A stretch of DNA of 61,550 nt, the filler included. It is 13 parts of 13 records of this genome, joined end to end, with 100 filler letters (N's around TTAATTAATTAA, not from the genome) between each part and the next. Parts side by side here need not be neighbours in the genome. Positions count along the whole stretch, not along the records: positions 24,850 to 29,531 come from SRR15195285_5278; 12 more parts are not named here. The stretch is one strand, 5' to 3'. Positions 2 to 61,239 of the stretch are shown piece after piece. The position numbers and the translations under genes are program-made. A model generated the notes under the pieces. That model ran no database searches. It saw only the letters and a list, made by a program, of their open reading frames with translations, and had not been told where the DNA came from. Position 1 is the stretch's first letter. Each line of letters starts with the position of its first letter.

Positions 2-3000
2 GCGGATGAAGACCGGGTCCAATGCACGGAACTTTGTCTTAAATGCGTCGATGATGACTGGCTCTGGGTCAAGCACCGTGACTCCAGGTGGAGCCTTGGC
101 TTTTGCTTCGGCCACGTGAGAATCAAGTCGGACAGATAATTTGTTCTGGGCTGCTGATACCACTGTACCCTTGCCCTGTCCTCGAATGTCGATCTGTGTG
201 CCTTTCAAGTCGTTCAACGACAAACCGTTCCCAGGTATCCAAGCTTCTGGTTGTTCGAAAGCCTTCGTTCGGGCTGCCTTGCGCATCGATTGGCGCTGCT
301 TGCGCCGCTCGCGCTCCCATTCGGAGACAATCCGCTCAGTGAACAGCGCGACGAACTTCTCGGACATGACCATCCACTCTACCGTACTCATGTCCACAGC
401 CTGCATGCCCAGATTGTCAAATCGAATTGTATGCAGGTTGACAAGTGCCTGGTAGTCGGTGACTTGGCCTCTGTCTTTGTTGATCACATTGACCCAATGT
501 CCAACCAAATCGTCACCTTGCAAATGTGAGCCGTCCATCCATGCAGCGTCATTGTCACCACCTTGCCGTCGCGCGTCCGCCTCTACACGAGCTCGATAGC
601 GATACTCGAACGCGCCCTTCTTTTTCGCAGATTCTGCGGCTTCTTGATCAAGTAGGCTCTTGATGCTGTCCTGCACGTACCGCGCCATCCAACTAGCGGC
701 CCAGTCCTCATCTAGTAGTGCTATCGAGTTCTCCCTTTGCAGCACTACTGAGGTGCGATTCTTGCCATTGATTCTACTCGGTTGGTCATCGAGGTGCGTC
801 TGCACCTGTGCCTTGCCGGACTTCACCTGCAGGACGTTGCCAACCTTGTAACCTCCAGTCTTGGTTCGCCAACGGATAGTCTTGCCAACGTTGCTGCCCA
901 TTGTTGCTTGATCTTGAAGCTCTTTGTTCGTCAACACTATCCATGCATCCTCTTGGTCGTGCACCAATGATCGTGCAGCTTCTTCAGCTCGCTGACGTTC
1001 TTCTTGTATCCTGGCTGCCTTGGCATCTTCATCTTCCTCAACATCAGATGTGCCCGATTTAAATTTGCTGATTTCATCGATAGCCTGAGCCACTGTCCCG
1101 TCGCTCAATGCAAGGCCAATTGTTTCGCCCATGTTCAACAGGTCGCTGCGGTTCAGCGTCCCATCCATCTCTTGATCCAGCATGGAGAACAACGCTTTGG
1201 ATTCGTCCTCTGTAAGCGTGCGCGGTTGATCCACTTCTTCACTAGCTTGTCCCCCGTCGGCTGCCGGTGGCGTCTGTACGGAACTGGGAGTGATCAGAGC
1301 TTCGGCTTCGGCCACTTCCCTGTCGATCAGCTCTATCACTTCTGGCTGGAAAAGCTTCCGGGCTGTGTTGTTTGCAGGCTCCATCATCCAAGCTTCGTAA
1401 GCATCAAACCCGATTGAACCAGTTTCGTCCGGATCAAGCTTGTGGACAGCTCGAGACACCTCGGCAGCCGATAGTTCAACTTCCACGCTGTCGCCTAGTG
1501 CACCAAAGTCATCTACATGGATCACTCCTCGGCCGTTTCGATCTATTGCTTTGAATAGCGTGGCAATGCGCTCTATGCGCATCGCCCCTGGGTCGACAGC
1601 TAGCGCAAGTTTTCGTGCCTTCACTGCAGCCATCCTCGACACGGTATTCGTTATCTTGTTGGCGATTTTGTCGTTCGAAGCCAGCCATTCGGCGAATGCG
1701 TCTGCGTACACTACCTCAGTCCCGTCTGGATCTAGACTCTCCACCGCTGTGGCCTTCTCTTTTTTGGTCATTTTGACTTCGTACTTCTTGCGCAACATAG
1801 GTAGCACATGATCGATGATGACATACCCGAGACCGTCTGGCTCGATTACAGCCCAAACCTCCTCGTGCAGAGGGTCCTGCCAGATGCTATCCTCATCTGC
1901 CTGTGTATCATCTTGCGCACCTGCAAGATTGTCGACTTCAAGGTTGCCAGCTGACTCATCGGCACTGTCTTCTGTCGGGCTGCTCTGCTTGCCCTCCTTA
2001 CCCTTCTTCTTGTTCTTCTTCTTGTTCTTCTTCTTCTTGCCTGCCTTGCCGGAATCGTCATCTTGAGCGACCATGTACTGATCATCGTCCGCCGCCTCGT
2101 ATGGTTCTAGAAGCCTCACGCCGATACGATTCTTCGGGTCGAGCATCCACGCAAAGAATGCGTCGTATCGAAATGTGCCTAGTTCTTTGGGGTCGAGATC
2201 TCTGGCCATTTTGCTCAATTCAGGTCCTGTCAGCTCCGAGCGGGATGGACTAGCTGGACCAGCAGCGTGCAGGTGCTGAATCTCAGCTTTGTCATCCTTT
2301 CCCAAGTCATCAAGCTCGTCAACGGCTTCGAACATCTTCCGCACGGCTAGTTCCCGTTGTGCTTGGGCGTTTGCTGCATCAATCTGGGCCTGTTCGGCTG
2401 CATCCTTTTCAGCTTGCAGATTTATTGCTTCAATCCCTTTCCGAATTTTCCGGACTAACTTGGAGGACCCACTGGCGTACCAGCTCATGAACTCGATGAA
2501 CGTCACGTCCCCGTTCCCGACAGTATCTATCTCCTCCATTGCTCGGTCGAGCTCCTGCACACTGAAGTGCTTTTCCATAACTGCGCCGCATTTGTTGAGT
2601 GTTGCGTGGTAGTTGTTGATGCATGTCTTCCAACGGTACCGTGCAGACGATGGGCCGCTACCCTCTTTCTCAACGCTATCCAGAAATGATTCCACTGTAT
2701 CTGCAGTAGTATCAGCCTTCTCCGCCTTCTTTTTGTTTCTTTTTTGGGGTGCAGACTCCGCCTCCTTCAGCTTGTCACCCTTGATCTTTGCAGCTGCTTC
2801 TACAAGCATCGTTGCAAAGTTGCTGTCCGACGTTAACCAACTACCAAAGGCGACGAGATCGATGAGATCTTCCTCGGCATTCTGAACATCTGAGACGCCC
2901 AGGTCAGTCAGCAAAGCATGCAGATCTTCACTGCTCAAGATCAAAGGGGCGGCTGCAGCCACGATAGCTAACTCCTCATTGACCCACTCCATCAGAGCAT

Positions 3001-3835
3001 CAATTTTGGATTTATCCGCCGCCATTTTCTTCTCCACGAACGCAAGACCGTCCTCACCAGAGCTGGCCAGAATTGCCGTCGTCTTCAGTGCAACGCGAGT
3101 GAGAGGCAGAGCTATCTTACCCACTGTCTTGGTGGCTGCCCACGTACCTTGTAGTGAAAACTTCGTCATTCTATAAGCACCCTCGGCAGCCACCAAGTAG
3201 CGTTCATAGTCGCTATCATCGCCACCCTCATCTGAGTCGAATGCCATTAGAGGTGCGAGCTCCGGCCACTCCAGCGCCATCAACGACGACCGGACCATTG
3301 CTGCAAGGTCACTATCACTAGAGAGCCAGCGTACGAACGTCTCGCAGTTGCACTGCGGTCTACGCTCCGCCGCAGCTTTCCGTTCGGCAGCCGCTTGACG
3401 CCTCTCATCGGATTGTGCTTCCACTGCGGCCGCCGTTTCCGCATCTAGTGCCTGGGCAAGTCGCTCCATAAGCTGGGCCTTTTTCCCGCTCGTGTCCAGC
3501 CCTCGTTTTCGTAGCTCTTTTCGAAGCTGTGGTGCTTTGAAAGAGGCGAAGTCAGCCTTGGCCGCCTGCAGGTGCTGAAATGCTGCTGCTTTCGCAGCAT
3601 TTTCTGCTACGATTTCCTCCGCCTCCAGCTCATCTAGTACAACAGCTTCTCTTCCTGCACGGTCTGACTTGGCATCAGCATGCACCAAGCGCTGGACTAG
3701 TTCTGCCCGTGACCCGTCGGTGCTCAGCTTCTGCTTTTTGAGAGCCTTCTTTAAATGAGATTTACTCATATTGTCGTACGCACTGGCTCCACTAGCCACA
3801 ACTGGGTCCGGCTCCGGCTCCAGCTCCGGCTCCGG
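2..3835 (-). CDS. Partial (>1270 aa) protein with 2 SAP domains, several EF-hands and three SH3/Tudor-like repeats; absent from the ORF track
   Basis: Manual translation of the minus strand shows no stop from 3835 to the window edge. SAP-like: YDNMSKSHLKKALKKQKLSTDGSRAELVQRL and FKAPQLRKELRKRGLDTSGKKAQLMERL. EF-hand-like: IDTVGNGDVTFIEF, IDRNGRGVIHVDDF, LDPDETGSIGFDAY, LDQEMDGTLNRSDL. Open at both ends. Confidence 0.85.
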
Positions 3836-3836
3836 T

Positions 3837-3936
3837 NNNNNNNNNNNNNNNNNNNNNNNNNNNNNNNNNNNNNNNNNNNNTTAATTAATTAANNNNNNNN
3901 NNNNNNNNNNNNNNNNNNNNNNNNNNNNNNNNNNNN
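3837..3936. other. Artificial contig-joining spacer
   Basis: 44 N + TTAATTAATTAA (stops in all six frames) + 44 N. Confidence 0.98.
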
Positions 3937-8376: not shown

Positions 8377-11058
8377 ATGGGTCCGCCAGTCGGGGCGTCA
8401 CCGCCGAGAACGTTCACGTTTACGTCGCAGGGACGCACGGTGGTGAAGAGTCTGCCCCCGATCGCAGCGAAGCAGCAGCAGGTCGGTGCCACAGCACGAG
8501 ATGCACTCTCTGCAACGTCCATTCACTTTGTGTCGTCTGTATATCTATCAAACACTGAGCTGTCTCTTGACCTGCACGACGTGGTGATGGATGCGTGGTG
8601 ACAGGCGGGAGCTCCGGCCGGCAAGAAGGGTGGGCGCAATGCGCGGCGGCAGCCCAATTCGGAAGCGTCGGGGAAGCGGCGTGCATTGCACACATCCATG
8701 GGCGAGAGGGGTTCTGCAGAGCTGCGGCATCTGCACGGGATCAAGATGCCGAGAACGAGAAATTCCTGTGATGGCAGCGTGGAAAATGCCGGCAGCGGCA
8801 CTTTGCCGACCCCAAGGCACCGCGGCCAGACTCCCTGCTACCTTCCACCGAACCGGCACGCCCGGCTCACGGCGTGCTCCCACCGTGGCGGCAAGCTCCC
8901 GGTCGAGTGGCCTGAGGCACACGACTGGCGGAGAGCTGCGTCTGTACCAGTGCTGGCGCTAGAACCAGTGCCGCCACGCACCCCGATCGAGCTGGGAGTG
9001 GACGAGACACCAACAGTTAACACCGCCAAAACCGCCCACTCCTCAATGCTGGGTCTCGTGGCTGCGCAACTAGGCTGGCGGGAAGACCGATCGGCGGATT
9101 TTTTTGACAGACAACTGCCGAGAGCACACGTGCTGTGGGTCGTTTCGCAGGAGGAGCTCAACAACATCTTGAGCTCGCCGATGCGCCGAGAAAACACACG
9201 GGTGAGCCGTATCCCAGGCATGCACGAGCTCTGCAGAAAGGCCCGCTTTGCGCGGTTGTTGCGGACTAGTGGCGACGGGACGCCGGCAGTCGAACCGAGT
9301 ATCCGCACGTGGGTTTTGCCAGATGAGCGTCCGCCACCTGCTGCTTTCAACCGGGGCCCGCTCATCGTGAAGCCAGATGACGGGTCGCAAGGGACTGGGA
9401 TCTCAATTGCCACCACTCCAGTTGAGCTGGAGCTGATTGCGGCAAAAATGGCTCGTAGGGGCAATGCCATCGCCGTTGCACAAGAATATGTGGACAGACC
9501 ACTGCTCGTGGATGGATACAAATTTGACCTTAGGCTCTACGTCCTGGTACTCAGCCTCCGACCGTTGCGCGTGTTTTTGTGCAACGAAGGCCTTGCGCGC
9601 GTCTGTTCAGAACCTTATCTCGAACCAACAGACTCAGCGACGCGGGAGGAGCGTCTGCGGAGGAACCGGCTGACACGCCACCTAACAAACTATGGTGTCA
9701 GCAAGCACAACGACGCTCATTTCGATGACTGTGACGACCCAAAGGATGGGTCGAGGGGAACGAAACGCACACTTTCCGCCACGCTCGCATACATGCAGGC
9801 CCGTGGCGACATATCAACAGATGTCTGGGGCGATATCTGCGGACTGGTGCGAAAAACAACTCTTGAACTCGGGCGCGCGTGTCGTGACGAGCGGACAGAG
9901 CCAGAGCTGCGGCTTGCAAGTCTGTGGGACAACTCGCCTCCCAAGTCCATTGGAGGCTGGCCAGCCCGTGGTAGTGCATGGAATCCACACAAATTAGGCG
10001 ACAGGGAAAAGCGAGACTGCTTCCAATTGCTTGGTGTGGACATCATTCTCGATGAGCAAGGCACCCCGCATGTACTTGAAGCGAATTGTGGTCCATCCTT
10101 CAACTTCGATAAGGTCGATGTAGTCGGAGCAGCAGCGACTCCACGACAAAGGTCGAAGATACCCTGTCCTCCAATGCATGGAGATGATGCAAATCAAACT
10201 TCTGCAGGTGAAACTGAGAGCTTCGCAGGCTTCCCGTGCGATCTACTGAACTCGCGGCTGCGAGGACACGGCACGAAAGTCTGCCGATGCTCTGCAATAG
10301 TGAAACCACACATTCATCGACCGAGCAAGGTTGATCTGGTCGTAAAGGGCCAAGCCCTCCGTGGACTATGCGAGATTGTCACCCGTGATATCCGCGCAAG
10401 GAGCAATGGCGGCCATGGTGATGGAAGTGGCGAAAGCAGGCCGTGCATCGACAGGTCTAACGCCAGTCGTAGTGGTGCTGGACTCACGGCAAGATCCAAG
10501 GCAAACACAGATATTTGGTCGACTGCAGCACAGTGCAATCCTGCACCTGCCGTGGACAATGCCAGGTCCCAGAGAGGTCAGGGGCAGGAGCAAGAGCAGG
10601 AGCAGGGGCAAGTAGCTAGGTCGGTGGACAACTTATCGCGTACGGCAGTCAGCGCTGCACAGCTGGTTGAAGGGACATCATACTCTGTGATCTGGGCTGG
10701 TGATGAGGATGAGGTCAAGGAATGTGCCGCTCTACCTGACGCGCCGCGGTCAATGCAGCAGCAGGGGCAACAGTCAGAGCAGCAGTCGGCGCAGGAGCAG
10801 GGGCCGGAAAGGCAGCAACAGCAGCAGGAGGAGGAACAGGAGCAGGAGCAGGAAGAGAAAGTCGAGGAGGAGGGGGCGGTGGAAGTGGTTGAAGCTGCCG
10901 TTGGTGTGAATGGGCAGCAACCTCTGGTACTGCCACCTCGAACGCCACCACCGGTACCTGATTCCGACGCCGACGAAGCGGCGGGGCCAAGAGAGGTGAC
11001 AACAGAGAATGCCGCGCCTCCATCCTGGGCAGCAGGCGCAGAAGAATGTGGCAAGTAG
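8377..11058 (+). CDS. Tubulin-tyrosine-ligase-like (TTLL) protein, probable polyglutamylase (TTLL11-like)
   Basis: IVKPDDGSQGTGI, QEYVDRPLLVDGYKFDLRLYVLV, EGLARVC, HLTNY, FQLLGVDIILD...LEANCGPS. Putative first exon 8377-8481 and intron 8482-8604 are in frame with the long ORF; the start is uncertain. Confidence 0.88.
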
Positions 11059-13883: not shown

Positions 13884-13983
13884 NNNNNNNNNNNNNNNNN
13901 NNNNNNNNNNNNNNNNNNNNNNNNNNNTTAATTAATTAANNNNNNNNNNNNNNNNNNNNNNNNNNNNNNNNNNNNNNNNNNNN
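13884..13983. other. Artificial contig-joining spacer
   Basis: N44-TTAATTAATTAA-N44. Confidence 0.98.
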
Positions 13984-13984
13984 C

Positions 13985-16900
13985 AGTGTGGCTGTTTGTG
14001 CTGCGGGCTATCATTCATACAACATGACGACACAAAGCTGTGTCGGATGTGCACCTGGCAAGTACGTGGAAACTGTTGGCAGCACTCAACAAAATGACTG
14101 CATTGACTGTGGTGCTGGGTTGTATCTACCTTCAGATTCCAGCTTCAATGCATCGGACTGCATTGTTTGTGAGCTTGGACGGTATGCATCCCCGGGCTCT
14201 GCTGCATGTGAAAACTGCGAACCCGGTCGGTTCAACAGTTTCTCTGCTGCTATTCCATGTGCGTTGTGTGGTATCGGTCGCTACTCCCTTGAGGCCGCTA
14301 CGGCCTGCATTCAGTGTGGTGCTGGACAGTCAGACGACGACAGTGATCCATCAACAGGGTGCACTAGATGTCCGATAGGAACATACGCCGCGCCGGGTCG
14401 AGGTGGATCGCATGGCTGCGAACCATGTGCATTAGGAACCTACGATCACGACGCCTTCCGGTCTGGCGCTGTACTCGTCGGTGCGTTGCACTCACATAGT
14501 GCTGCAACGCCATGTGCACCATGTGGTATTGGCCGATCTCAAAATTCAACAGGCCAAATCCAGTGTGACATATGTCCTCCGGGCACGTATCAAGATCTAC
14601 CTGCGCAAGCAGTGTGCGAACTGTGTTCCGCAGGGACTTACAGCCTATTGAGTGGGAGCAATTCCAGCGCAGACTGCATCGACTGTGCTGCTGGTCGTTA
14701 TCAAAGCTCACGGGGCGAGTCGAACTCCAGTGACTGCTTTGAGTGCCCCGTCGGCACGTATGCTGGCAATGGCAGTAGTGCCTGTGCATCATGCCGTCCT
14801 GGGACTGCGGACTTAGATGAAAATCCAAGCACGGTGTGTCAGACGTGTAGCGCCGGATTTTTTGCTGGTCAGATGTCTGTTGTCTGCCTAGAATGTCAGT
14901 CTGGCTGGGCAGATCTTGATGCGTCCGCGGCTTCGGAATGCGAAAAGTGTCAGCCCGGAACGTTCTCAGCTGCAACAGCGACTGACTGCACGAGGTGCGA
15001 ATCTGGTAAAGCTGATGCTGACTTGGATCCTGCTACCATCTGCAGTCAGTGTGAAAACGGCACGTACTCGCCGACTGCTTCGATCCGATGTGAAGCATGT
15101 GCATCGGGATACGCAGACCTCGACTTAAACCCAGGATCAGAATGTCAAACCTGCGGCGCAGGCGTAACTTCTGAAATTGGTCTGACTGAGTGCCCTCTCA
15201 TATACTGTAGCAGATATTCTGTTCAGCACGCCAGCGTTGCTGGAAGCATACTCTTCCGTGACGAGAACGGCAGGACATATCCGGATAATGCTGCCAGCGT
15301 TGTGACATGCGACGCCGGTTTCTCGCTATCTGCATCTGCAGTGCAGAAGTATGCATACCGCCGCTGCACCGCGAACGGCAGGTGGGATGTGCCCTCCCCA
15401 GAGTGTGTGTCCATCAATTGCTCGTTGGCACCAAACTGTGCGGCGCTTCTGCGGACGGGCTGTGTTGACACGATGCATACTTGTGGGCCTTGTCTACCTG
15501 GGTATGCGTCCATGTTAGCCGAGGGCGATGGCAACGATCAATGCGGAATACTAGCGCTGGCTTTCAATGCCTCTGTGGAAACAATAGGGATCCCACCACT
15601 CCTGGACGAGTTCATCTCGGCCATCGAAAGTGCGGCTTTCAACGTAAGCGATGGCTCTGTAGCTCATGCAGAAACTATACGCTACGTCCAGATTGTGCAT
15701 CAGGAGGTGCAAGGACTCCCCGGGGCTCCTGAAGATTACATGGTCCCTGGCCCGTCAACTGCCTGGGGAGCGCCCGCCCACCAAATCGAAGAAGCTCTCA
15801 GGTTTGTGATAGGAGACCCTGATAGTTCAGTAACCGTTGAAGATGTTACCGTGACACCAGGTAGTCGTCGACGACGTCAGCTGATTGATGCCGCGTACGT
15901 CAGTGTGTCATACACAATTGTGTCCTCAACAGATGTTTCGGATGTCGTGTCCAGGTACTCGAATACCTCATTCCTGGCAGCTCTTGAGTTGGCAGATGGC
16001 CCCATAACTGTTCACAACTCGACTGCAGAGACCACGGGCGTAGGCCCTCTGGCAATCGATGCATCGTCGCCGCTTCTGGTATCTGAACCAACAATCTTCA
16101 CGACGGTGCAGTTCGAGTTGACAGTTAGGGTCACCAGCGCCCCAGCGTCTGCACTGGTTCTGGGTGCAGTGTCAGAAATTCTGCAGAACGCAACGACTCT
16201 CGCCCGCTATTTTCGTGAAACGAGCAACAGGACCATCTCAATTCACCGTTTGGACCTGCTGAGTGCTGGACTGGTGCACTTGCCTCTCCCTCCGGCTCCA
16301 CCACCGCCGCCTTGTGGGACACTTGGGATCATGTGCATTTCGGCAGGAATAGAATCGCATTACATCGTTCTTGCGTTTGTGGTAGTGGCATCTTTGTGGT
16401 GCATGTGTGGACTGTGCCAGGCCGTAGGTGATAAACTTGTTGCAAAACATCAACGCAGAGTTCACGTTGAGGTGTACCCGAGTGCTCACGAGGCAGAGGA
16501 CGTCTTGCGCGAGAAACTTCGGCAGGCAGAGCAGGTTATCGCCAAAATGGCTGAACATATAGATCCAGCACAACTCGAAAGTCTCAAATGGCGTGTTGGC
16601 GAAAAGGCTATTGTGGACAACTTCGTTGAAATGACGTACGATGAATGCGTTGCTTTCAAGCCTGTTTTTGTCGAGCGTGGGGACAAGCTTCCTGGCATTG
16701 AAATGAAGCTGCACCCATTGGAAGACTCAACTATTGACATGCTTATCGAACACCTGGAAAAGCTCAAGCTTGACACGCGGAACTTACAGCGGCCGCCTCC
16801 TTGGTGGAAGGCCACTTCAAAGAAGCATCTTTTCTATACCTACTGCATGTATGGTATACTGAGTAGTGTCGACATGGTACTTCATGGTTTCTGTACATCT

Positions 16901-17256
16901 GTGCTCAGAGATGAGGGGCAAGTTGATGATGGTATCCACAGGCTGTCCGATTTTGCCGCGCTCTCTCTGGTACTGCGCGTTGGTCTGTCAGCCGCGAGCG
17001 CTGCGTATACGGGGTGGTACCTGCATGAAGTTGGCCTTGACGCGAACTCTCACAAGCATCTCACTCGAACTCTGTTAAATTATCGCCGCACAAGGCGCCG
17101 AAGCCACCACGAACGAATTGAGAAGGCCAGAAAGTTGGTGTCCACAGAAGTGGGTGCGATGAAAGCTGTGGCACACTTGCGGGTCAAGAGTACACACCGG
17201 CCCCAATCGGCTCCAGCTGGGAAAATCTTTCATGATTTTGCCCTCAAAAGTGCGCC
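13985..17256 (+). CDS. Partial membrane protein with Cys-rich (ephrin-receptor-like/GCC2_GCC3) repeats and a Sushi/CCP-like domain
   Basis: Many CxxCxxG(T/R)Y repeats; TCDAGFSL...RCTANGRWDVPSPEC; hydrophobic segment IVLAFVVVASLWCMCGLC. Open at both contig ends. Confidence 0.85.
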
Positions 17257-17356
17257 NNNNNNNNNNNNNNNNNNNNNNNNNNNNNNNNNNNNNNNNNNNN
17301 TTAATTAATTAANNNNNNNNNNNNNNNNNNNNNNNNNNNNNNNNNNNNNNNNNNNN
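17257..17356. other. Artificial contig-joining spacer
   Basis: N44-TTAATTAATTAA-N44. Confidence 0.98.
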
Positions 17357-24749: not shown

Positions 24750-24849
24750 NNNNNNNNNNNNNNNNNNNNNNNNNNNNNNNNNNNNNNNNNNNNTTAATTA
24801 ATTAANNNNNNNNNNNNNNNNNNNNNNNNNNNNNNNNNNNNNNNNNNNN
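24750..24849. other. Artificial contig-joining spacer
   Basis: N44-TTAATTAATTAA-N44. Confidence 0.98.
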
Positions 24850-27800
24850 TTGCGCGCAGCATTTCTACCGCGTTGCTTGGTGGGGGCTGCTGCGGTTGGT
24901 GCATTTGCTGCGGCTCAGGCTGCGGCAGTAGCTCAGGCTGTGGCCGAGGCGGCCGCTGCTGCTGCCTTTCTCGCAACATCTGCACCGCGGCTCCTGGTGG
25001 CGTCGGCGCCGGCTGCTGGTTCAGGCCCGCAGCCTCGGTTGTGTCCGCTGGTGCGCCTTGCCTCCTGCGCAAAAAGTCAACAGCCACCGGATTTGCTGTC
25101 ACCTTCGCGTCTTCATCAGCAATCGACTGCCCGTTGGAATGGCTCCCGTTCAGCTCATGGGCACCACCACCGGCAGCTTCCGCAGGCCTCGGCGGGCCTG
25201 ACCGATCCGCTTCGTATGCTTGGAAGACTATGTGAGATCGAGGGCAAGAGGAGAACATAATCCTCACGGCCGGATTAAAGGAAAAGAATCGCTTCAGCTC
25301 CCGCTGTCGGCCTAGTACGGCGTGGATCGCGGTGTCTGCCAAATCCTCTGGTAAGAAGCCCTGATCCAGGTAGGCATCCACGCGGTGCGTGAAGTCCGCG
25401 GCCACGGCGTTGTAGGCAACAATGGTGTGGCAAATGCGCATCGTGTTCGGGGCATCAACCTGCATCTCCGCAAGCTTTCTCTTGCAGCGAATGCAGCACT
25501 TCATAGCGTTCACTGAGAAGCCTCCGAGTTGTGAATTCGAATCGGCACCGTCCTCTGAAAGCTGCTCCAGCTGTTCTATCAGGGCCAGGAACATCTCCGT
25601 GCAGAGCAACCTGTGGGTGAAAAATCTCGTCGCCTCATTTTTCTTCAACCCCTTGTCCACGTACTTTGTCATGCAGTCCTCAAGTGCATCGATCGGAGAG
25701 TCTCGCGCTCCCTCAGATGACATTCGTGTCATACGGCTGCCACGTGATTCGTCGGCTGCTCCGCCACTAGAAACCACTTGCTGCAACTGAATATCGTTGA
25801 GGTCGATGGCCTTCCCAACCATCGCAGACAGCTCGCTGTAAGCCTTTCGACTGATAGACTTCTTTTCACATGCATGAAGAAAGTTCGACCGCATAGACGC
25901 AAGCATGATATCGTACATGGCAAAGCTGTGATCGATGTCTGAATTGGAGTCGCTTGCAGCCAGCCACCTCCTAATGTTTCGGAGTTTATCCATGTGGCTT
26001 GGCCCGTGACCATGACCGTGATCGTGACCGTGATCGTGACCGTGATCCTTTTCGTGGCCACTGTGATGACTGATGCTGGACCCTGTCCTATGAGGACCGC
26101 CTTCCTCGTTAGTGTCGCCGCCCATGCCGTCGGAAAAGAGGACTGCGTTCCGCAAATCAACATTCACCTCGCCGCCTTCTCCACTGTCAGAGTGAAAGCA
26201 GGACACCACCAGGTCCGCTGTGCCGGCACAATGGGAAGTCTGCGGAGTGTCACCTCCTGCCGAGGTCAACTCGCATGTTTCGTTCATGTCTCCTCCTGCT
26301 AAACACAGCGAAGACAGGTCAATTGAGCACTCGCCAATCTCATGATCGTCCTCGCCGAAGTCACTATCGTAAAATACCAGCTGCAGTGTGACCGGTACAT
26401 CCTTCGATATGGCGGAGAGAGCGAAGTCGTGACTAGCTGTTCCCGCAGGCCATGTGGGTGAGTACGTGTGATTCACCACTGGTGTCTCAAATGTGTAGAC
26501 GTCGTCTCCGACGACCAGTGTCATGACGCCGTACGGGTTCGGTGCCATGATATTGCTCGCGACTGAGGCTCGGGAAGCCCGCAAGTCAGGCTTTGCTGTA
26601 GCACAAAGGTCAACAATGCTGATCGACGTGTCACTAATACTAGCATTGCTGCGCACAGACAGCATTGCATCGTCATCAACAGGCGGAAGAGTCGTTGGCA
26701 CGAGCTGATTTTCCAGGATGCGAGTCCATACCGACTGCATGGGGTGAATCTTGATGTCTACCAGGTCACCGTCTAGCATGTGAGCCTTCGCTAGGTTTGG
26801 CATCAGGCTACCGAGTGCGTCAATGTCCACATTCGAATGGAACCAGTGGCTTTTGAGCTTGAACATGAATCTGTCCATCTCGGCTTGGATTGTTCGTAGA
26901 CTCTGGGTAGCGAGCCCGGGTCGGTATGGATTTGGTGGGTACACCTCGAGCATCTTGTAGACCTTGCCAGAGGTGGTGCCATTTATGACGAGGGTGAGAG
27001 TCACAATGCCTGTTGTCTGCAGGAAGATCGTCTCGCGTGCACGATCTCCGATGAGGTGATTGCCGTCAATCAATAGCGCCAGCGAAAGAGAGACAGCCCC
27101 CCGGAGGCCGCCCCAGACCAGTACAACCGCCTCCTTGAGCGAGAGTCCGTAGCCTATCTTGGTGAGGATCGGCGAAAACAGGGCAACAACGCCGGCACGA
27201 ATGAACCCAAGAACAATCCACAGCGTGAAGTTGAGGACTACCTGGTTGCCAACGTGGAACTTGGTCTCAGCTGTGTCGTGTAGACTTTCTGTGCACTCGC
27301 CACCTAGTTCCGGGCCGTCCCAACGGCAGACGTGATGTGTCAAGCACACCTGCTCCTGTTCGATGGGTCCACAAACTTCTGCTTTGTCCTCAGCAAAGTC
27401 GTCCTCAAAGTTTTCAACGAATGACGCAATCTTGTCTCTGGATTTCACCCCGGCCAGGATGAAGATGAAGCTGGTTGCAACGTAGCCAACTTCACCCCAA
27501 AAAGCATGGTTGGCGTGATGTGTACGTTCGTCCATCGCAAGAAAGCTCGTGCGCGCTGCCTGCACACCGAACACCACTGTACCCAGCACGCCCGAAACTC
27601 CCAGAACATTCTCTGCGAGCCAGAAGGTGCTGAGAGTACCGACCACAAGAGTCGTGATCTCGATGTTCGGATCGCGTACGTGCTTAATAGCCTCGTAACA
27701 CACAGCTGCCACGAACAGACCCCAGAGTACACCACCGCCAGCGAGCTTGAGTAATGTGTTGATAACCTTGAACGCCGTGGTGTCACAGCCACTTGCGACG

Positions 27801-29371
27801 CCCTGCATCACCATGAAGGCCACGACAGCAGTTCCGTCGTTGAGCAGCGATTCACCTGCAATCATGTAGTTGAGCTTATCTGGGCAACCGAGATCGTTGA
27901 GAACGGCGCAGACGGCTACCGGGTCGGTAGCGGCCAGCATCCCTCCCAGCAGCAAGTGGACTGCCACTGGCAACTGTGGGCTCGAAAAACTACCTTCGAC
28001 ACACTCCATGCAGATGAAACCACCATCAGGTCCTTGCTGAGACTGCCAGTGCGGGTTGACTCGCGGCTCGCACGCCTGGAGACAGTCGGTGTTGGCTGCT
28101 GAATCTGGATCGCACGGCTGATCTCCGACCATGAAGGTGTTCTCGCGAGCCCCACCGACCATCAGCGCACCAGTGACAAGGTCTCTCTCGACGACACACT
28201 CCTCGGCAAACCCAAACAGCAGCATCGTAGTGGCTGCCGTGAGAAGCATTGAAATTAACACTCCTGGGCCTGCCAGGATGACCGAGGACAGCAGCACCTT
28301 CCGGAAGACGTAGTAATCCATGCTGCTTGCGTCTTCGAAGAGCAGCGGTGGAAGCAGTACGAACAGTATCACGTGCGGGTGTGCAGCCTTCCATGCGAGT
28401 ACCGATTTGAAAAGCATGCCGGATAAGCCGGGGTGCTCGTCCGCGTGGCCGCTGTGACCGTGCCCGTCCACTTCCTCTGACGCCTCCAGACCTTCGACAC
28501 ATAGGTGCGAAATATAGTAGCCGAAGAAGAACATAACCACTGTAAATGGTGGGTTGATTGACTTTCCGCAGCATGCGCCGCTGTTCAGCTTGTTCAAGAT
28601 GGTCGTGACGACAACGGTCGCGACAAGGCAGGCAAGCAGGAAAGGCCACCATGCAAGACCGTCGTCATCGTGGTGGCCAGCAAGGCACGGGTCGAGGTTG
28701 CTCTCTTCGAACTGTTCCTCGTCGGTGAGCCCCTCCCCGTCGGTCGCATTGCAGTACACCGGGACACAGTCGTGCTCGCCTTTCGCACAGAGGCGCGGCA
28801 CGCAGTCTTTGCACTTGATGTGGATCGTCTCATTACGGTGGGATACATGATTGTAGATCACATGCGCCATGCAGCCCGTTTCCTCTGCGAGCTCGAGTGT
28901 ATGGCCCGTGCCGTGCAGTAAGCTTTGCATGGCAGCGTCCTCGCCGCACAGAACGGGCTCGCAAGCCGTCGTCCGGAACACGTCCACAGCGTTCGGCGCG
29001 TCGCCGTGGCCGTCGCTGTGGCCGTCGTCGTGCCCCCCTGCAGGCCCATCGCCACGCCCCCCACGGTCGCGATACTCGCAGCACGCTCCGAGACAGCTCG
29101 CCAACGCACCTTCTATGCCGCATAGCTCCTCCGGCGCGCCGGCTACATCGTGGCAGTTCTCGTCGTTCGGGCCTTGCCAAGTACGGTCGTCCGCCCCGCA
29201 GTCCCGCGACTCCTGCAGCGCCCTTCCGTGCTCAAGACCGCCCCCCCCGTCCAGCACCGAGACCTCCACAGCAAGAGAAACACCGGTAGCAGCAGTACCA
29301 GCGCCCCCCGCAAGCGCACAGCCAGCAGCAGCACACAGAGCCTGCACGAGCCGTCTCGCCAATGTCCCCAT
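24850..29371 (-). CDS. SOS1/SLC9C-type (CPA1) Na+/H+ antiporter with Cys/His-rich N-terminal ectodomain and inserted C2 domain, 3'-truncated (paralog 1)
   Basis: PFTVVMF, HPHVILFVLLPPLLFEDA, ATDPVAV, GESLLNDG, GVSGVL, WGGLRGAVSL, TLVINGTT. C2 core NPYG...TPVVNHTYSPTW...FYDSDFGEDDHEIG. Confidence 0.92.
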
Positions 29372-29501
29372 CACCGCCTCAAACCCCGGCTAACTCCGCA
29401 CCCTCAAAACCACCCAGTCAATCGCCACCCTCCCACCCTCTCCCACGGCAAACAAGCCTCGAAGTCCCCGGGCAGCCCTTAGAATGTGCGCAACGTGGTC
29501 C

Positions 29502-29531
29502 CCATCGCCATCGCCATCGCCATCGCCATCG
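29502..29531. repeat. (CATCGC)n microsatellite at contig end
   Basis: About 5 tandem hexamers. Confidence 0.85.
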
Positions 29532-35788: not shown

Positions 35789-37821
35789 TTATCCCTGCTT
35801 GTCCTTCTCAATGCCAGCCTTGGCCTTCTCCAGGCGCTTCAACGACTTCTCATGCTGCAACACAGCAGTTCGCGACACACGCGGCACTCGAAATCTCAGA
35901 TCAGCACACCCGGTGTTGCATTCCATGCGTTGGGTTGGCGTGCTGTGCGGCGCTGGGCTTTCTCACCGTTGGGTCAACTGCAAGAGCTTTCTCGGCGCTG
36001 ACCTTTCCTTTGAGATTGCGACCGAGCTGGATCATGCACTCCGCGTGGTTGGAATGCAGTACGACCCGCAGCTTGTCGTCCGGGTCGAGGCACAGCGCCT
36101 GCCCGTATCGGCTGGCTGCTCTATGGAAACCTTCTTTTGTGCCTGCGGTGGGATATACAATGCCATGCGATGTCGTGCCCATCAGTAGCAGCAGTGAGAT
36201 CGGGTCTTTGTGGCTCATTCTGAGCGAACGCATACACGGGGACGAAGGGTGCACGCATAGAAAATCGCAAACCCCTTGCGACCAGCTGTGTCGATGGTGC
36301 GCGGCGCACCGAGTTTAAAGGAAGCATTCCCCTCTTCCTTCAGCGACAATGCGGTCTTGCCCTGCTTGGCGAGAAGCTTCGCCATCATTGAACCCATTTC
36401 TTCCTCGTCGGTAGATTCGCTCTCATCTCCTGCCGCCTCACTGCCACCTTCCACTGCTGTCTTGACAGTAACAGAGGAATCCTTCCCCGACGGAGCATCT
36501 GGGGCCTCTGGTCTGATGCCGTCCAAATAGGCTGTTGATGCAGCAATGAACTCAGCCTTCTCGGAGAAGTCATAGCTGAGCTTCGCCGACGCCAGAAGCC
36601 CCTTCATGTTTTTTATGGACCAGCTCTCGCCCGCATCACGCTCCTTGATCATTTTCCGCGCCAGCGTGAAGTGGTCGATCGTCTGAGCGAGGTCTGGGTG
36701 CTGGTAGTGCAGTGCCTCGTCGCGTGCCTGGTTTCCCTGCGAATTTCGCAGCGTTGTGTCGATGCCGAGCTCACACAGCAAGCGGCCGGTCTCGTGCTGC
36801 CCGCCCATTCCTGCAGCGTGCAGCGGTGTGCCATCGCCATTGTTTCGCACGTTCGGGTTGACCTTTTGCTCTTCGATGAGCCACTTCACCACTGCAACGT
36901 GTCCCTTCGCTGCTGCCCAGTGCAGGGCACAGTGACCGACAAACCCGTAGGAGATACCCTTGCCACGGTAGTATAGAAGGCAGGGCTCCTGCGCAAGCAG
37001 CCGCTGCAGCGTGCCTAGGTCGCCGGCCTTTGCCGCATCGAACCACGGGACGCCGACTTCCTTGTCCACCAGCACGTCCCCCGTCGGCACGACCATCCAG
37101 CCGTCCTGTAGGACTGGAGGCCCGGCAACTTCAGCCGGCTCCGGCTCCGCTGTGGCTGCTGCCGCAGGCGGGATCAGCGGGGGGCCCGTCTCGGGGATCG
37201 GCGCAACGGCAGGCGCCTCCGTCGGGACGAGCTTTTCAGGAACAGTGTTGCGTTCGGTGCCGTCCTCGAATCGAATGGTATAGTACGGATCCTCGCCGGG
37301 AGCTAGGTTCTCCACACCCTTGTGCACGATTTGAGCGCGGCGCTGCGTGCCGTCGGCATCGGTGTGGAGCACCCACTCCACCGGTGCCTTCTTCGGAGCC
37401 TGGACGAGATGCCCCCGCGTCTCGAGGAACGCGGCGATCTTCGAGTGCGACCGCAGTGCCGCCGCGTCGCGCGCGGTGTTGCCATCTTCGTCCTTGACCG
37501 AGGCGTCGCAGCCAGACCTGCAGTGGCAGGTTCACGAGGGCCACAAACAAAAGACTCGTCGATCAGTTGAGCGCAAGGAGGGATCGAGGTGTATTGTAAT
37601 CGTTACCGCAGCAGCAGGTTGACCGCCTCCCAGCTGTCGTTTGACGCCGCCGAGTGCAGCGCTGTCGCACCGCTGCCATTCGCGAGGTTCGGATCGATGC
37701 CTCCGCCCAGAAGCCACGAGATCAGCTCCTCGTTGTTCCTCGCGGCGGCCCAGTGCAACGCCGAGTTACCAATGCCCGGCTGGCGGTAGGAAAGCAGCGC
37801 GGGCGTGGCCGAAAACATCGC
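35789..37821 (-). CDS. 5'-partial ankyrin-repeat + SH3-like + TPR protein
   Basis: SALHWAAA, TALHSAA, ALHWAAAKGH, TPLHAA; PYYTIRFEDGTERNT; LKEEGNASFK...SNHAECMIQLG...ALAVDPTHEK. Introns 37518-37606, 36143-36309 and 35855-35966. Confidence 0.82.
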
Positions 37822-57520: not shown

Positions 57521-60500
57521 TCAGTGATGCGACTGCAAAACCATGATGCTCGGTGTATCACGTGTGCCCGCCAGCAATGCGCTATACGAGTGAAAGAGGC
57601 GACAGGCAGCTGGTAGAGTGTGAAAGACGCACCTGATACTTCTGATCCAGAAAATACGTCAGCACCGCAGGGTGCCGCGACGTTTCATCGTTCCCAAACC
57701 CAAGCAATGTCTTGATGATGACTACCGTGCCAGGGAAGAAAAAGTCATTCAACTCAACCTGTACCGTAGACATCCGATCACGACAGTCAGAGCCATCCCA
57801 AGATCATCAGCGTGGGCTTGGCGGCATCGATCCGTAGCAGCGGACAGGAAAATTGCACAGAATCATGAGAGAGCTGCTTATGAGGCGCAAGGGAATGGCG
57901 CACGAATCTCTCTGCCAAGCGATCCTCTACAGCACGAAGCATCCTGAGTGATAAACAGCCCATTTCGTAGCCCTTCTTCAGTCGATGACGGTACTCCTCA
58001 GCAAGCACCCGGAAGGCGATGACTGAATGAATCGCCGTGTAAGTGTTAGGCATATGTCGACGCTGCTCACGGATCAAACTCTTCGCTGCCTTCTTGACTG
58101 CCTCCAGCTCCTCTAGAACTTGGTCATCAGCAGCGGCTTCCTCATCTGTGAGGGAACCGAATGATCGCGAGCTCATGACATCGATGGCCTTGGTCAAGAC
58201 AAAGAGAATTTCCACACAGGTCTGCATGTGGGCGAACGCCATGTGCGGGACACGTTCGCCAAGCACGCCATCGTTGCCAGTGCGGATGAAATCCTTGAGC
58301 TCATCCCACATAACCAGCAACGCCCCCTTTGCCAGCGTTCCCGAATCGTGCGCCTCAATCGCCGCGTCGTTTGCAACGCCTATCGCATCCTCAAGTGCAT
58401 TTGCCGCAGCATCCCCTATCGTGTCTGTTTCTCCAGCCTCACGGAACATTGCAAGCATGTGCTGCAAAAACACACCGTACAAAGCATTCCGCGCGTCAAA
58501 CTCGGAAATCTCCCCTTGGTCAGTGTCCATTCGTACCATCCGATTCGCATCGGCGAGCATGTCGGTCGCATCGTGTATACTCTGATCTAGCAGCTTCTTG
58601 TTCGTAGCAGATACATTTGGAGGGTCTGATGCAGCAAGGTCACAAGCTTTCAATACCTCGACCTCAACGTACCCAATGCTTGCGATTCTCTTCCCAAGTT
58701 CGACTTTTTGGGGCGTCATTGGCTCTTCGGGGTCTTTCGGGGTAAATTTGATCCGCAACCTCAGTGAACCCTGTATGAGCGCAGCTTTTCGCGCTGATAC
58801 AACGATGCTGCTTGCCGCCATTTCAACACTACGGGCGGCCGCTTCACCGGCCTTGATCATGCCTGTGATGCCTTGTTCTACCTCGTCCACGACTCTATGA
58901 ACTCCTTGCTCAGGCGATTCAGGGCTGTTAAAACTCTGCGCGATGCCCTCTTCCACTGAGAAGTTTCGTGTTGGTGCCGTGAGCTCAATCTCCTGCTCGA
59001 ACTCCGCGATGTCTGGGTAGCTTGTTGATGCTATAGTTTCCCGCAGGTCCACTTTGGCTTCGCCAAGATAGTCGTCAACTAAACCATAATCCCAGTCGTA
59101 CACTGTGGCGTACACCGTTGTCTCAGCTGATTCGATCCGGTAACGGAACTTATTGGCTTTTTTCCACACCGGATTGAGGTTGGCTTTCTGGACTGGCGTA
59201 GACTTGCGCTTGCTGGGCCGGCCGTCACGATCCACCAGGACTTCAACGTAGGGATCACTGGAGCCCACCAGCACTGATGATCCATCAGTGAGCATCACCC
59301 TGGACGACTTCTGACGTAACTTGTCGATTGGACCGCGTGCAGAAATTTTCTTCGTCGGTGTGCCTTGCTTGATTTCTGCTTTCCAATGGGTCTCATCAAC
59401 TGGCTTAGCCTTATATCCGACCAACTCATCATGGACAAGCTCTGCGTCGGAGAAATCAATCATCAAATCCTCAACGATCTTGAAATCGGCGTGGCCGTGA
59501 AATTCGTCCGCGGCCAAAGCTGCATGCATCCACGACATTGAGTCCTCGTGCAGGCAAGCCATTGCCTGCCGTACAAGCTGATCACGGTAGCGGTTCTTGC
59601 GATACAAGTCCAGGCGCTGGTAAACATAGCCACAGAGAGTGCCGTTGATGAGCAAGGAGAGTGTCACTACCCCAGCTGTCTGGATCAGCACAAAGTCTTT
59701 GGTTTTGCTCTCAATCGTTGGATGTGAATCGATTAGCAACGCCAGTGCCAGCGACACAGCACCGCGCAGGCCAGCGAACGTCATGAACATCGCCTCCTTC
59801 TTGGTCACGCCATACCCGATCGTTTGTAGGATTGGAAACAACGACGTGATGGTGAGCCCGCGGACGACAAACACGGCAACGTAAAATATTAATGTCAGAA
59901 CCAACAGCTGCGTCAGCTCTTGAACTGACAGAGGTTCACCACTGAGAATGTCGCTCTCATCGACTTCGCGGTTAAACATTGCGTCAACTTTTCCACGTGC
60001 TACGATTCCAGTAAGCGTGAAGATGACCAGCGTCGACACGAAGCCCATCTGCTCCCACATCATGTGATTTCTCTCGAGACAGTCAGGGCTCATGCAGAAG
60101 TAGCTTTTGCGTGCAGTTGCCAGTCCAAACACGACGCTCGCCAAGATTCCAGACACACCGAAAATCTCCTCCGACGTCCAGAACACGGCAAATACGCACG
60201 TGATCACTATTGTTATCTCTACAATGGGTTCACTGACAAACCGCATCCAGATGGACATGGTATGGGCGGCTATCCAGCCCCAGGACACCCCGCCGATAGC
60301 GAGCACCACAAATCTGCTCAAGACTGAGCTGAAGTCAGTGTCGGAGCATTCAGCGACTAAGTCTCGAAATATCCAGAACACCACGACGGCGGTTCCATCG
60401 TTCAGCAGCGACTCGCCTCCAATTATCAAGTTCAGCTTTGCGGGAGCGCCCAGCGACTTGAGGACTCCAAGCACAGCGACCGGGTCTGTGGCCGACAGGA

Positions 60501-61239
60501 TGCCTCCCAGTAGCATGTGCGTCGTCCAACCGTATTCGTTTCCAGCGAGTAGGTTGAATAGAAACCACGAAAACGCGCCCGACAAGGCTGACGAGATCAT
60601 CACGCCCGGCCCAGCCAGCAGGACTGACGAGGGCAGCGACTTTCGAAACACGTGATAGTCGATACTGGCCGAGTCCTCGAACAGCAGAGGAGGCAGTAGC
60701 ACGAACAGGATGATGTGCGGGTGGGTGTTGACCCAGCCACTCACAGAGAGATCCATCCTCGAGAAGTTCTGCTTCACGAAGTCTAATGTGGTGATGGTCT
60801 CGACAGTGAACCCGAACAAGAACATCACCACCGTAAACGGCAGCCCCATTCTGCGTCCACAGATCTTGTGGCTGCTCAGCTTAACCAGGAGTGTGGCGAC
60901 CGCACACCCAATTCCCAGCATCAGGAGTAGGGCAGGCATTCCACCTAGGCCGTCGTCCGAGTCGCCGTAGTAGCACTGGATCATCTTTGGTGCAGGGCGC
61001 TGTAAGCTGGGGAGCATCGAGCAGTTGCCGCCGCCGCCCGCTCCACCCTGCGGATCCCACTTCAAGCACGTCTGCGTAAACTGCACGCACGTCATCGAGT
61101 GCATCGCGTCGCACTTCTCGCTGCGCACGGACGCGATCAGCGCCTGGAGCTCCTCCGCCAACTCCCATTCCTCCGGCAGATCGGCGCTCGAGGAGTTGGT
61201 CGTGTTCATGAAGCCCTCGGCGCTCGACGGCGACGGCAT
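57521..61239 (-). CDS. SOS1/SLC9C-type Na+/H+ antiporter with inserted C2 domain (paralog 2); exons 61239-57904, 57758-57633 and tentatively 57532-57521
   Basis: LPFTVVMF, HPHIILFVLLPPLLFED, ATDPVAV, GESLLNDG, AGLRGAVSL. C2: SSDPYVEV, NLNPVW, VYDWDYGLVDDYLG. Splicing intron 57759-57903 gives ERFVELNDFF, matching paralog 1 RQRELKRFF. The last exon is uncertain. Confidence 0.9.

Follow-up and report, generated by a model that had tools for sequence, protein, structure and literature searches.

Introduction

Plant SOS1 and the sperm exchanger SLC9C1 are models for how large cytosolic domains control a Na+/H+ exchanger; in plants this control is exerted by a kinase, in sperm by voltage and cyclic adenosine monophosphate (cAMP). 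Here we describe two paralogous genes found in a stretch of DNA of 61,550 nucleotides (the window, i.e. the whole stretch that was analysed, linker letters included), which code for exchangers of the same subfamily and carry a C2 domain inside their SOS1-like cytosolic helices.

The alpha-helical cytosolic domain of SOS1 (alpha C-terminal domain, alpha-CTD) comprises residues 458-722, whose eight helices, HC1 to HC8, form a U shape proximal to the inner membrane surface; residues 482-492 make up the HC1-HC2 loop. It lies under the transport domain beside the membrane, takes part in autoinhibition, and is followed by a domain resembling a cyclic-nucleotide-binding domain (CNBD-like, 732-883), a beta-rich domain and an autoinhibitory tail, and Ca2+ is sensed indirectly only, via SOS3/SOS2 (all according to the available part of PMC10372031).

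Plant SOS1/NHX7 (Arabidopsis 7y3e, 8jd9; rice 8iwo, 8j2m) is the best match of the membrane domain described here in both sequence and fold. The SOS1 alpha-CTD is homologous to the proximal helices together with the distal helical domain of the new proteins, and the same topology, N-terminus out and C-terminus in, is expected for them. SOS1 has, however, a CNBD-like domain, a beta-rich domain (beta-CTD) and a long autoinhibitory tail with kinase sites; the two domains are absent here, gene 2 is too short for such a tail, and a C2 domain lies in the HC2-HC3 loop instead. The Ca2+ sensor, SOS3/SOS2 in the case of SOS1, would here act in cis, if the C2 domain senses Ca2+. SLC9C1 (sea urchin 8pcz, 8otq and others) falls into the same CPA1 branch (E-value about 1e-53, Foldseek about 1e-19 to 1e-20) and likewise has channel-type and signalling-type regulatory modules fused to the transporter in cis, but its voltage sensor and CNBD were not detected in the two genes, no further membrane helices occur in the model of the gene 2 protein, and the module is a C2 domain. 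NHE1 and NHE3 with CHP and calmodulin (7dsv, 7x2u) provide Ca2+-linked control of a CPA1 exchanger through the juxtamembrane tail; there the Ca2+ sensors are separate EF-hand proteins acting in trans, and the sequence kinship is much weaker (E 1e-14 to 1e-16).

No description of an exchanger with a C2 domain was found in the literature covered, which was mostly open-access with supplements apart, and the design, thought undescribed when the window was initially annotated, provisionally keeps that standing. The overlaps that did turn up were unrelated: one SLC9C1 paper mentions the C1-C2 domains of adenylyl cyclase, and a pelagophyte study has PF00168 and PF00999 on separate proteins. The two genes are:

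24850..29371, minus strand: gene 1 (type-1 paralog, protein P0001), coding sequence from the first Met to the contig end, 3' end missing; continuous open reading frame (ORF)
57787..61239, minus strand: gene 2 (type-2 paralog, protein P0002), complete coding sequence, Met at 61239 and stop at 57787-57789

Exchanger domain and family placement

28667..29371, minus strand: gene 1 N-terminal region (aa 1-235), signal-like start followed by a Cys-/His-rich presumed ectodomain; from sequence and orthologues including P0035
26939..28654, minus strand: gene 1 membrane domain of the Na+/H+ exchanger (about aa 240-811), two of its loops bearing Cys-rich insertions; PF00999 at 127 bits and alignment to gene 2
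59605..60948, minus strand: gene 2 exchanger membrane domain (aa 98-545); Pfam at 160.1 bits, AlphaFold2 (AF2) with block predicted local distance difference test (pLDDT) mostly 83-97, Foldseek

Both genes are electroneutral CPA1 Na+/H+ exchangers of the SOS1/SLC9C branch, the family proposed for them by the initial annotation. The Pfam family Na_H_Exchanger (PF00999) matches gene 1 with 127 bits and gene 2 with 160.1 bits at a cut-off of 26.2. Searched by phmmer against all PDB sequences, P0002 finds Arabidopsis SOS1 (AtSOS1, 2.5e-64) first, then rice SOS1 (OsSOS1) and sea urchin SLC9C1 (SpSLC9C1, about 1e-53); NHE9, NHE3, NHE1 and NHE6 are far weaker (1e-17 to 1e-12). The AF2 model of full-length P0002, made with 100 relatives, has a mean pLDDT of 80.4 and a predicted template modelling score (pTM) of 0.69. 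It shows the 13-helix NHE fold, and its top Foldseek matches are SOS1 and SLC9C1; against truncated rice SOS1 (8j2m_A) the membrane domain reaches a template modelling score (TM-score) of 0.91 at a root-mean-square deviation (rmsd) of 3.2 Å over 451 columns. The membrane domain of gene 1 was judged by its alignment to gene 2.

Residues T251, D252, E276, N280, D281, R460 and R492 are conserved to at least 90% across 124 and 100 aligned relatives. We take T251 and D252 (the TD of the unwound helix), N280 and D281 (the ND motif), R460 and R492 to be the CPA1 ion-site residues, and the TD, ND and Arg motifs are also visible in P0001. The ND motif is a mark of the electroneutral exchangers.

The N-terminal region of gene 1 would be extracellular, by analogy with the SOS1 topology given in the available part of PMC10372031. 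The loop insertions of gene 1 are kept in P0035 and in the type-1 consensus; the signal-like start, the Cys-/His-rich N-terminus and the two Cys-rich insertions are all conserved among the type-1 relatives. The N-terminal region of gene 2 is shorter and contains Cys.

Cytosolic layout and site of the C2 domain

26672..26938, minus strand: gene 1 proximal cytosolic helices, equivalent to HC1-HC2, FHSNVD motif included; model helices at local 28-50 and 61-67, collinear with gene 2
59395..59592, minus strand: gene 2 proximal helices (aa 550-615), FHGHAD motif included; phmmer to AtSOS1 7y3e
26132..26545, minus strand: gene 1 C2 domain (aa 943-1080), eight strands; Pfam, family hidden Markov model (HMM) at E 5e-24, AF2, Foldseek
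58642..59277, minus strand: gene 2 C2 domain (aa 655-866) with a low-confidence insert (aa 762-814) and the last two strands after the insert; Pfam, synaptotagmin-1 match, AF2
25220..26005, minus strand: gene 1 distal helical domain (aa 1123-1384), homologue of the SOS1 alpha-CTD (HC3-HC8 region); tail HMM, hhalign
57862..58608, minus strand: gene 2 distal helical domain (aa 878-1126); helices in the AF2 model (block pLDDT mostly 83-97), tail HMM at E 7e-66

The C2 domain is inserted in the loop equivalent to HC2-HC3 of the SOS1 alpha-CTD. On its N-terminal side, the phmmer alignment of P0002 with AtSOS1 (7y3e) extends past the membrane domain to residue 524 and sets the FHxx(A/V)D motif (FHGHAD in P0002) on SOS1 482-492, the HC1-HC2 loop. 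On its C-terminal side, a profile of the post-C2 helices has weak but significant matches in relatives without a C2 domain, directly after the membrane domain in two members of the CNBD clade, P0251, which carries PF00027, and P0242. Compared by hhalign with the post-membrane helices of the CNBD clade (24 rows, plant SOS1 included), the post-C2 helices match with a probability of 91.3% (E 9.3e-7, 198 columns), beginning about 66 residues past the membrane domain of these relatives. The phmmer and hhalign alignments thus give the order membrane domain, HC1-HC2, C2 domain, HC3-HC8-like helices and short tail. This architecture, taken alone, we regard as practically certain.

In BLASTP the two genes are collinear from the membrane domain through the C2 domain (31% identity, 555 columns, E 2e-74), which therefore sits at the same place in both paralogs; the tail helices align separately with 24% identity over 208 columns (E 4e-7). 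The initial annotation was right to put the C2 domain inside the SOS1-like helices and at one common site, and wrong in setting it immediately after the FHxx(A/V)D motif, since the domain begins about 80-100 residues past it.

Fold and chain order of the C2 domain

The insert had been called a C2 fold from the letters alone, which is borne out by Pfam, the synaptotagmin-1 match, the AF2 models and Foldseek. Both genes have a C2 profile match and an eight-stranded beta-sandwich, the fold being taken from the strand layout of the models. In gene 2, Pfam C2 (PF00168) scores 50.8 bits at aa 658-738 (cut-off 22), and the model has confident strands at 663-752, the insert at 762-814 and further confident strands at 825-834 and 856-866. 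In gene 1 the AF2 model of P0001 residues 790-1400 (mean pLDDT 80.9) contains eight strands at 946-1080, most of them with a block pLDDT of 82-97 and one with 52, then a disordered stretch and a helical bundle. The type-2 insert (58798-58956, minus strand; aa 762-814) is Ala/Gly-rich and repeat-like, lies between the sixth strand and the last two, and varies in length among relatives from about 50 to 130 residues.

The best sequence match of the type-2 C2 domain is found among the synaptotagmin-1 and PKC-alpha C2 domains, with which it has the SDPY and DxD...D motifs and the polybasic strand 3-4 region in common; against synaptotagmin-1 (E 9e-14) the two motifs are aligned. Differences are that the strand preceding SDPY in those domains lies at the C-terminal end here, and that the C2 domain is inserted inside another domain and not in tandem. 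For the cytosolic model of P0001 the best structural matches are C2 domains of the plant CAR/OsGAP1 type (5a50, 5a52, 4rj9), headed by Arabidopsis CAR4 (2.9e-4) and joined by CAR1, OsGAP1, a Trichomonas C2 (TMt 0.59), cPLA2, perforin and PKC-epsilon. The CAR/OsGAP1 proteins differ in being small and soluble, and they match with 17-18% identity, modest scores and a large rmsd. The cytosolic part of P0002 gave no usable match in the ESM Atlas.

The Pfam C2 matches cover only profile positions 19-95 and 21-92 of 104. As the match starts at profile position 19, the first canonical strand is missing on the N-terminal side, and no conserved strand precedes SDPY in the relatives. The last C2 strand of the family has the pattern of the missing strand, and by hhalign with 120 canonical C2 domains drawn from the search matches it aligns to the strand just before SDPY (P 0.0024, 21 columns, probability 12%, sole match). 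A Pfam search with the 66 residues that hold the last two strands returned no C2, only AlpA at chance level, so that a permutation is indicated by the AF2 strand layout and the weak hhalign match. With moderate confidence, then, the C2 domain appears to be circularly permuted, with both ends in the Ca2+-binding loop 1. C2 domains come in two chain orders, topologies I and II, and the order of this family appears to match neither.

Ca2+-ligand residues and His-rich stretch

26006..26125, minus strand: gene 1 His/Asp/Gly-rich disordered stretch, from the last C2 strand to the distal helices; pLDDT below 50 at local 294-333

The five acidic ligands of the synaptotagmin/PKC type are present in gene 2 and its clade and not in gene 1. 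In type 2, Asp fills the four core acidic columns in 11-12 of 12 rows, and the last strand has its acidic end (LAASD) in eight of eight rows. In type 1 the first core column reads D in 21 and N in eight of 29 rows, the last core column reads D in 11 of 29 only, and the acidic end of the last strand is absent. Within the 17 columns of the strand 3-4 region, Lys and Arg together number 6-8 in ten of 12 type-2 rows; every one of the 29 type-1 rows has 0-3. A polybasic patch like that of type 2 is a feature of C2 domains that bind phosphatidylinositol 4,5-bisphosphate (PIP2).

Type 1 has a histidine-rich stretch of its own. In gene 1 nine His fall within its last 30 residues, and at least three His within the 30 residues after the last C2 strand were counted in 25 of 27 type-1 rows and in none of eight type-2 rows. 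If the C2 domain is permuted, this His/Asp/Gly-rich stretch would lie at the place of loop 1. It may be a sensor of pH or metal. The His cluster of NHE1, which it resembles, gives pH-sensitive lipid binding.

Distribution and phylogeny

Searched exhaustively and without a profile, 1.84 billion representatives gave 420 matches to the tail of P0002 at E<=1e-3, mostly multi-C2 proteins; exchanger membrane sequence is also present in six of the best 150 of these 420. A word-indexed search with full P0002 gave 1376 matches at E<=1e-20, and among the best 120 of them precomputed annotation lists 20 proteins with PF00999 and PF00168 and 21 with PF00999 and PF00027. None of the 20 PF00999-PF00168 proteins among the matches listed is sourced from NCBI or UniRef; one member of a 90% cluster is an NCBI record. 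Scanned with an iterated local HMM of the C2 core, 41 of 126 relatives have the C2 domain, all of them among the closest matches and all within two clades.

These clades were obtained in a maximum-likelihood tree of the membrane domain (121 rows, quick search, LG+G4, no known root), with branch support from the Shimodaira-Hasegawa-like approximate likelihood ratio test (SH-aLRT). The type-2 clade comprises 10 rows (SH-aLRT 99) and the type-1 clade 34 rows (SH-aLRT 100); they join, together with one long branch, at SH-aLRT 86, and all 21 CNBD rows fall into a separate clade (SH-aLRT 100). The simplest reading is a single gain of the C2 domain before the type-1/type-2 duplication.

The only named members of both clades are EukProt labels of the Picozoa single-cell assemblies COSAG01, SAG22 and COSAG02, of which COSAG01 is a Picozoa co-assembly according to the available part of PMC8599508. 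Gene 1 itself is present in 19 marine or seawater runs from 13 studies, six of these runs being RNA libraries. Because of the named members and the marine runs, the source organism is probably a picozoan or a relative, an uncultured marine protist.

C-terminal region and missing CNBD

24850..25219, minus strand: gene 1 tail of low complexity (aa 1385-1507), which carries a conserved NP[VAMLI] motif and is truncated at the contig end; sequence and motif count

In both proteins the chain ends at the point at which SOS1 goes on into its CNBD-like domain. Pfam cNMP_binding is absent from both genes at E<=1 and from six full-length relatives at E<=0.01, so the CNBD, not visible in the first reading, is not supplied by complete orthologues either; plant SOS1 among the matches does carry PF00027. 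Ion_trans is also absent from both genes in Pfam, and the P0002 model after residue 545 consists of the C2 domain and soluble helices only. Neither the CNBD-like domain of SOS1 nor the voltage sensor and CNBD of SLC9C were thus found.

In the 34 relatives whose sequence extends to the last helix, this is followed by 2-159 residues that are acidic or of low complexity. Gene 2 has 34 residues past the last conserved helix before its stop, which leaves no room for an autoinhibitory tail of the SOS2-dependent type, and gene 1 runs through 124 low-complexity residues to the contig end, much as had been noted at first sight. P0182, the closest gene 1 orthologue in the collection searched (61% identity), stops 17 residues past an alignment that reaches P0001 residue 1479, and gene 1 is therefore probably short of only a few tens of residues. 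A word-indexed search with the P0001 tail for an identical full-length protein returned only orthologues with at most 59% identity over the queried tail. NP[VAMLI] occurs in 23 of 26 type-1 tails, compared with a mean of 1.6 and a maximum of 6 in 1000 shuffles. The tail of gene 1 also repeats an AV(Q/E)ML motif, which its closest orthologue has as well.

The last 30 residues of gene 2 (57787-57879, minus strand) are not common to P0003, a 98%-identical protein from a public run assembly, or to P0004. Both of these stop where gene 2 starts to diverge, or one residue later, and the pLDDT of gene 2 is below 50 there. The true C-terminus of gene 2 may be shorter.

A rival reading makes the C2 domain a structural stand-in for the lost CNBD-like and beta-rich domains, serving dimerisation or the packing of the helical domain and sensing no ligand. 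It would suit the decay of the Ca2+ ligands in type 1 and the CNBD-like domain of SOS1, which packs on helix HC6 and is believed to bind no nucleotide (available part of PMC10372031). The two domains are nevertheless found at different sites, the C2 domain in the HC2-HC3 loop and the CNBD-like domain after HC8; the acidic pentad and the polybasic patch of type 2 are conserved without or nearly without exception, and five relatives manage without any C2 domain. We consider the stand-in very unlikely.

Proposed regulation

The explanation that we put forward joins the C2-bearing architecture to a function of the C2 domain as a built-in sensor that switches exchange, and towards this whole we lean slightly; on the regulatory mechanism taken separately our judgement is evenly divided. 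The C2 domain would dock on the inner leaflet and reposition the helical domain under the transport domain, a movement that would switch exchange, most likely by relief of an SOS1-like autoinhibited state. The alpha-CTD of SOS1 lies next to the membrane, and from the HC2-HC3 loop a C2 domain could readily reach the inner leaflet.

For type 2, the full synaptotagmin/PKC-type ligand set and the polybasic patch are the reasons for proposing Ca2+ together with anionic lipid or PIP2 as the trigger. A rise in Ca2+ would let the C2 domain bind anionic lipid or PIP2, HC2 and HC3 would move, and activity would change, most likely towards activation; judged from these residues, the type-2 paralog is a plausible direct sensor of Ca2+ and lipid. 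For type 1, where the Ca2+ site is degenerate and a conserved His-rich stretch lies at the C2 tip, the trigger would for these reasons more likely be cytosolic pH, a transition metal or Ca2+-independent lipid binding. From general physiology, the inward Na+ gradient in seawater would drive H+ extrusion, so that activation would alkalinise the cytosol.

If this explanation is true, the two genes add a third control logic to the subfamily, direct control by Ca2+ and lipid or by pH in cis, and offer a simple system for how movements of the alpha-CTD gate the transport domain. They would also be a first functional lead for Picozoa, a marine lineage not in culture from which hardly any protein has been characterised, and a permuted C2 domain, if true, would be a new topology in a very well studied fold. 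A bolder version combines such a third C2 topology with ligand binding at the split loop 1 that pulls on the host helices, making type 2 Ca2+-gated in cis and type 1 a proton- or metal-gated pH-stat, all specific to Picozoa and relatives. With the C2 domain in the HC2-HC3 loop and both of its ends in loop 1, the pull on the two host helices would be direct, and in type 1 the His-rich stretch would stand in for half of loop 1; as a whole this version is doubtful.

Several observations weigh against a C2 switch. The coupling of the C2 domain to transport is pure inference. The built-in Ca2+/lipid sensor that the initial annotation proposed for both genes agrees with the type-2 residues, namely five ligands and a polybasic patch, and poorly with gene 1: P0001 reads N, D, D and H at the four core ligand columns (with D at a neighbouring column), has no loop-1 Asp on the last strand and no patch, and its C2 domain thus is without two or three of the five canonical ligands. 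The Pfam C2 match of gene 1 is marginal (23.6 bits at aa 943-1022, cut-off 22), and the C2 domains matched in Foldseek have modest scores (E 3e-4 to 5e-2) at a large rmsd. In the AF2 models both linkers flanking the C2 domain have low confidence, and the models were read as strand layout. RNA-library contigs of gene 1 are no proof of transcription. Finally, the type-1 relatives P0139, P0179, P0185, P0187 and P0191 have no C2 domain at the site and keep the flanking segments and the His-rich stretch; the host domain thus functions, or can at least fold, in the absence of a C2 domain.

Four of these C2-less relatives are on the tree, where they occupy three or more places, and either several losses or exon skipping would account for them. 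That P0179, P0185 and P0187 are merely cut before the C2 site is ruled out, as their proximal region is followed at once by the His-rich stretch and then the first distal helix. Three C2-less relatives turn into non-homologous sequence and break off soon after the first distal helix, as though the gene caller had entered an intron.

The same relatives, and the long low-confidence linkers, which suit a loosely attached module, can be counted in favour of a targeting or tethering role, in which the C2 domain would take the exchanger to a PIP2-rich plasma membrane, a flagellar membrane or a contact site, or control its trafficking, with no allosteric gating. Membrane targeting is an established and common use of C2 domains, and the NP[VAMLI] motif of the type-1 tail could be a sorting signal. 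An integral membrane protein, however, needs no C2 domain for reaching a membrane, the insert lies inside a regulatory helical domain and not at a free end, and the ligand set of type 2 is strictly conserved, as would be expected of a switch. Targeting without gating is in our view unlikely.

Sequence material and gene models

The window consists of 13 separate contigs of 3273-9050 nt, linked by N44, a 12-base tag and N44; at one contig junction the tag reads TTAATTAATTAA. Adjacency across the contig joints is uninformative for this reason. Several contigs have ORFs on both strands, and the contigs are therefore genomic.

The contig of gene 1 spans 24850-29531. A single unbroken frame of 1531 codons, read as P0001 over the 1507 residues from the first Met at 29371, runs into the linker at 24849, and the 3' end is hence cut by the contig end; a DNA contig of the public run X3 reaches 468 nt past position 24850. 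Gene 2, on the last contig, has an ORF of 1155 codons and codes for 1150 aa. Its start at 61239 was correctly placed in the initial annotation, and its end at 57521 was set about 270 nt too far. Contigs from two DNA and two RNA-library runs are collinear on gene 1, without joints. Stretches of gene 1 have no cover in RNA-library runs, from which no conclusion was drawn.

These data bear on the reading that the C2 domain is an artefact, that is, an assembly chimera, a read-through intron or a decaying pseudogene. Such an origin could be imagined for a window made of short metagenome-type contigs, in which one gene is cut by a contig end and the last 30 residues of the other are missing from its 98%-identical relative. 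Both ORFs are nonetheless unbroken over their 1531 and 1155 codons, the C2 region is spanned collinearly by independent DNA and RNA-library contigs, the architecture recurs in 41 relatives from independent sources, and the fold predictions are confident, all of which makes an artefact extremely improbable.

Depth spikes and loose contig ends were seen at 25949-26105, a GHD-coding repeat, and at 28932-29088, another short repeat; they are low-complexity repeats shared with contigs of other organisms, not structural variants. An Rfam scan of the window gave 0 matches and no rRNA. Further genes on other contigs of the window are:

2-3880, minus strand: SAP and EF-hand protein
8602-11058, plus strand: tubulin-tyrosine-ligase family protein
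13940-17308, plus strand: ephrin-receptor-like repeat protein
36215-37531, minus strand: ankyrin-repeat protein

This gene content is consistent with a flagellated eukaryote.

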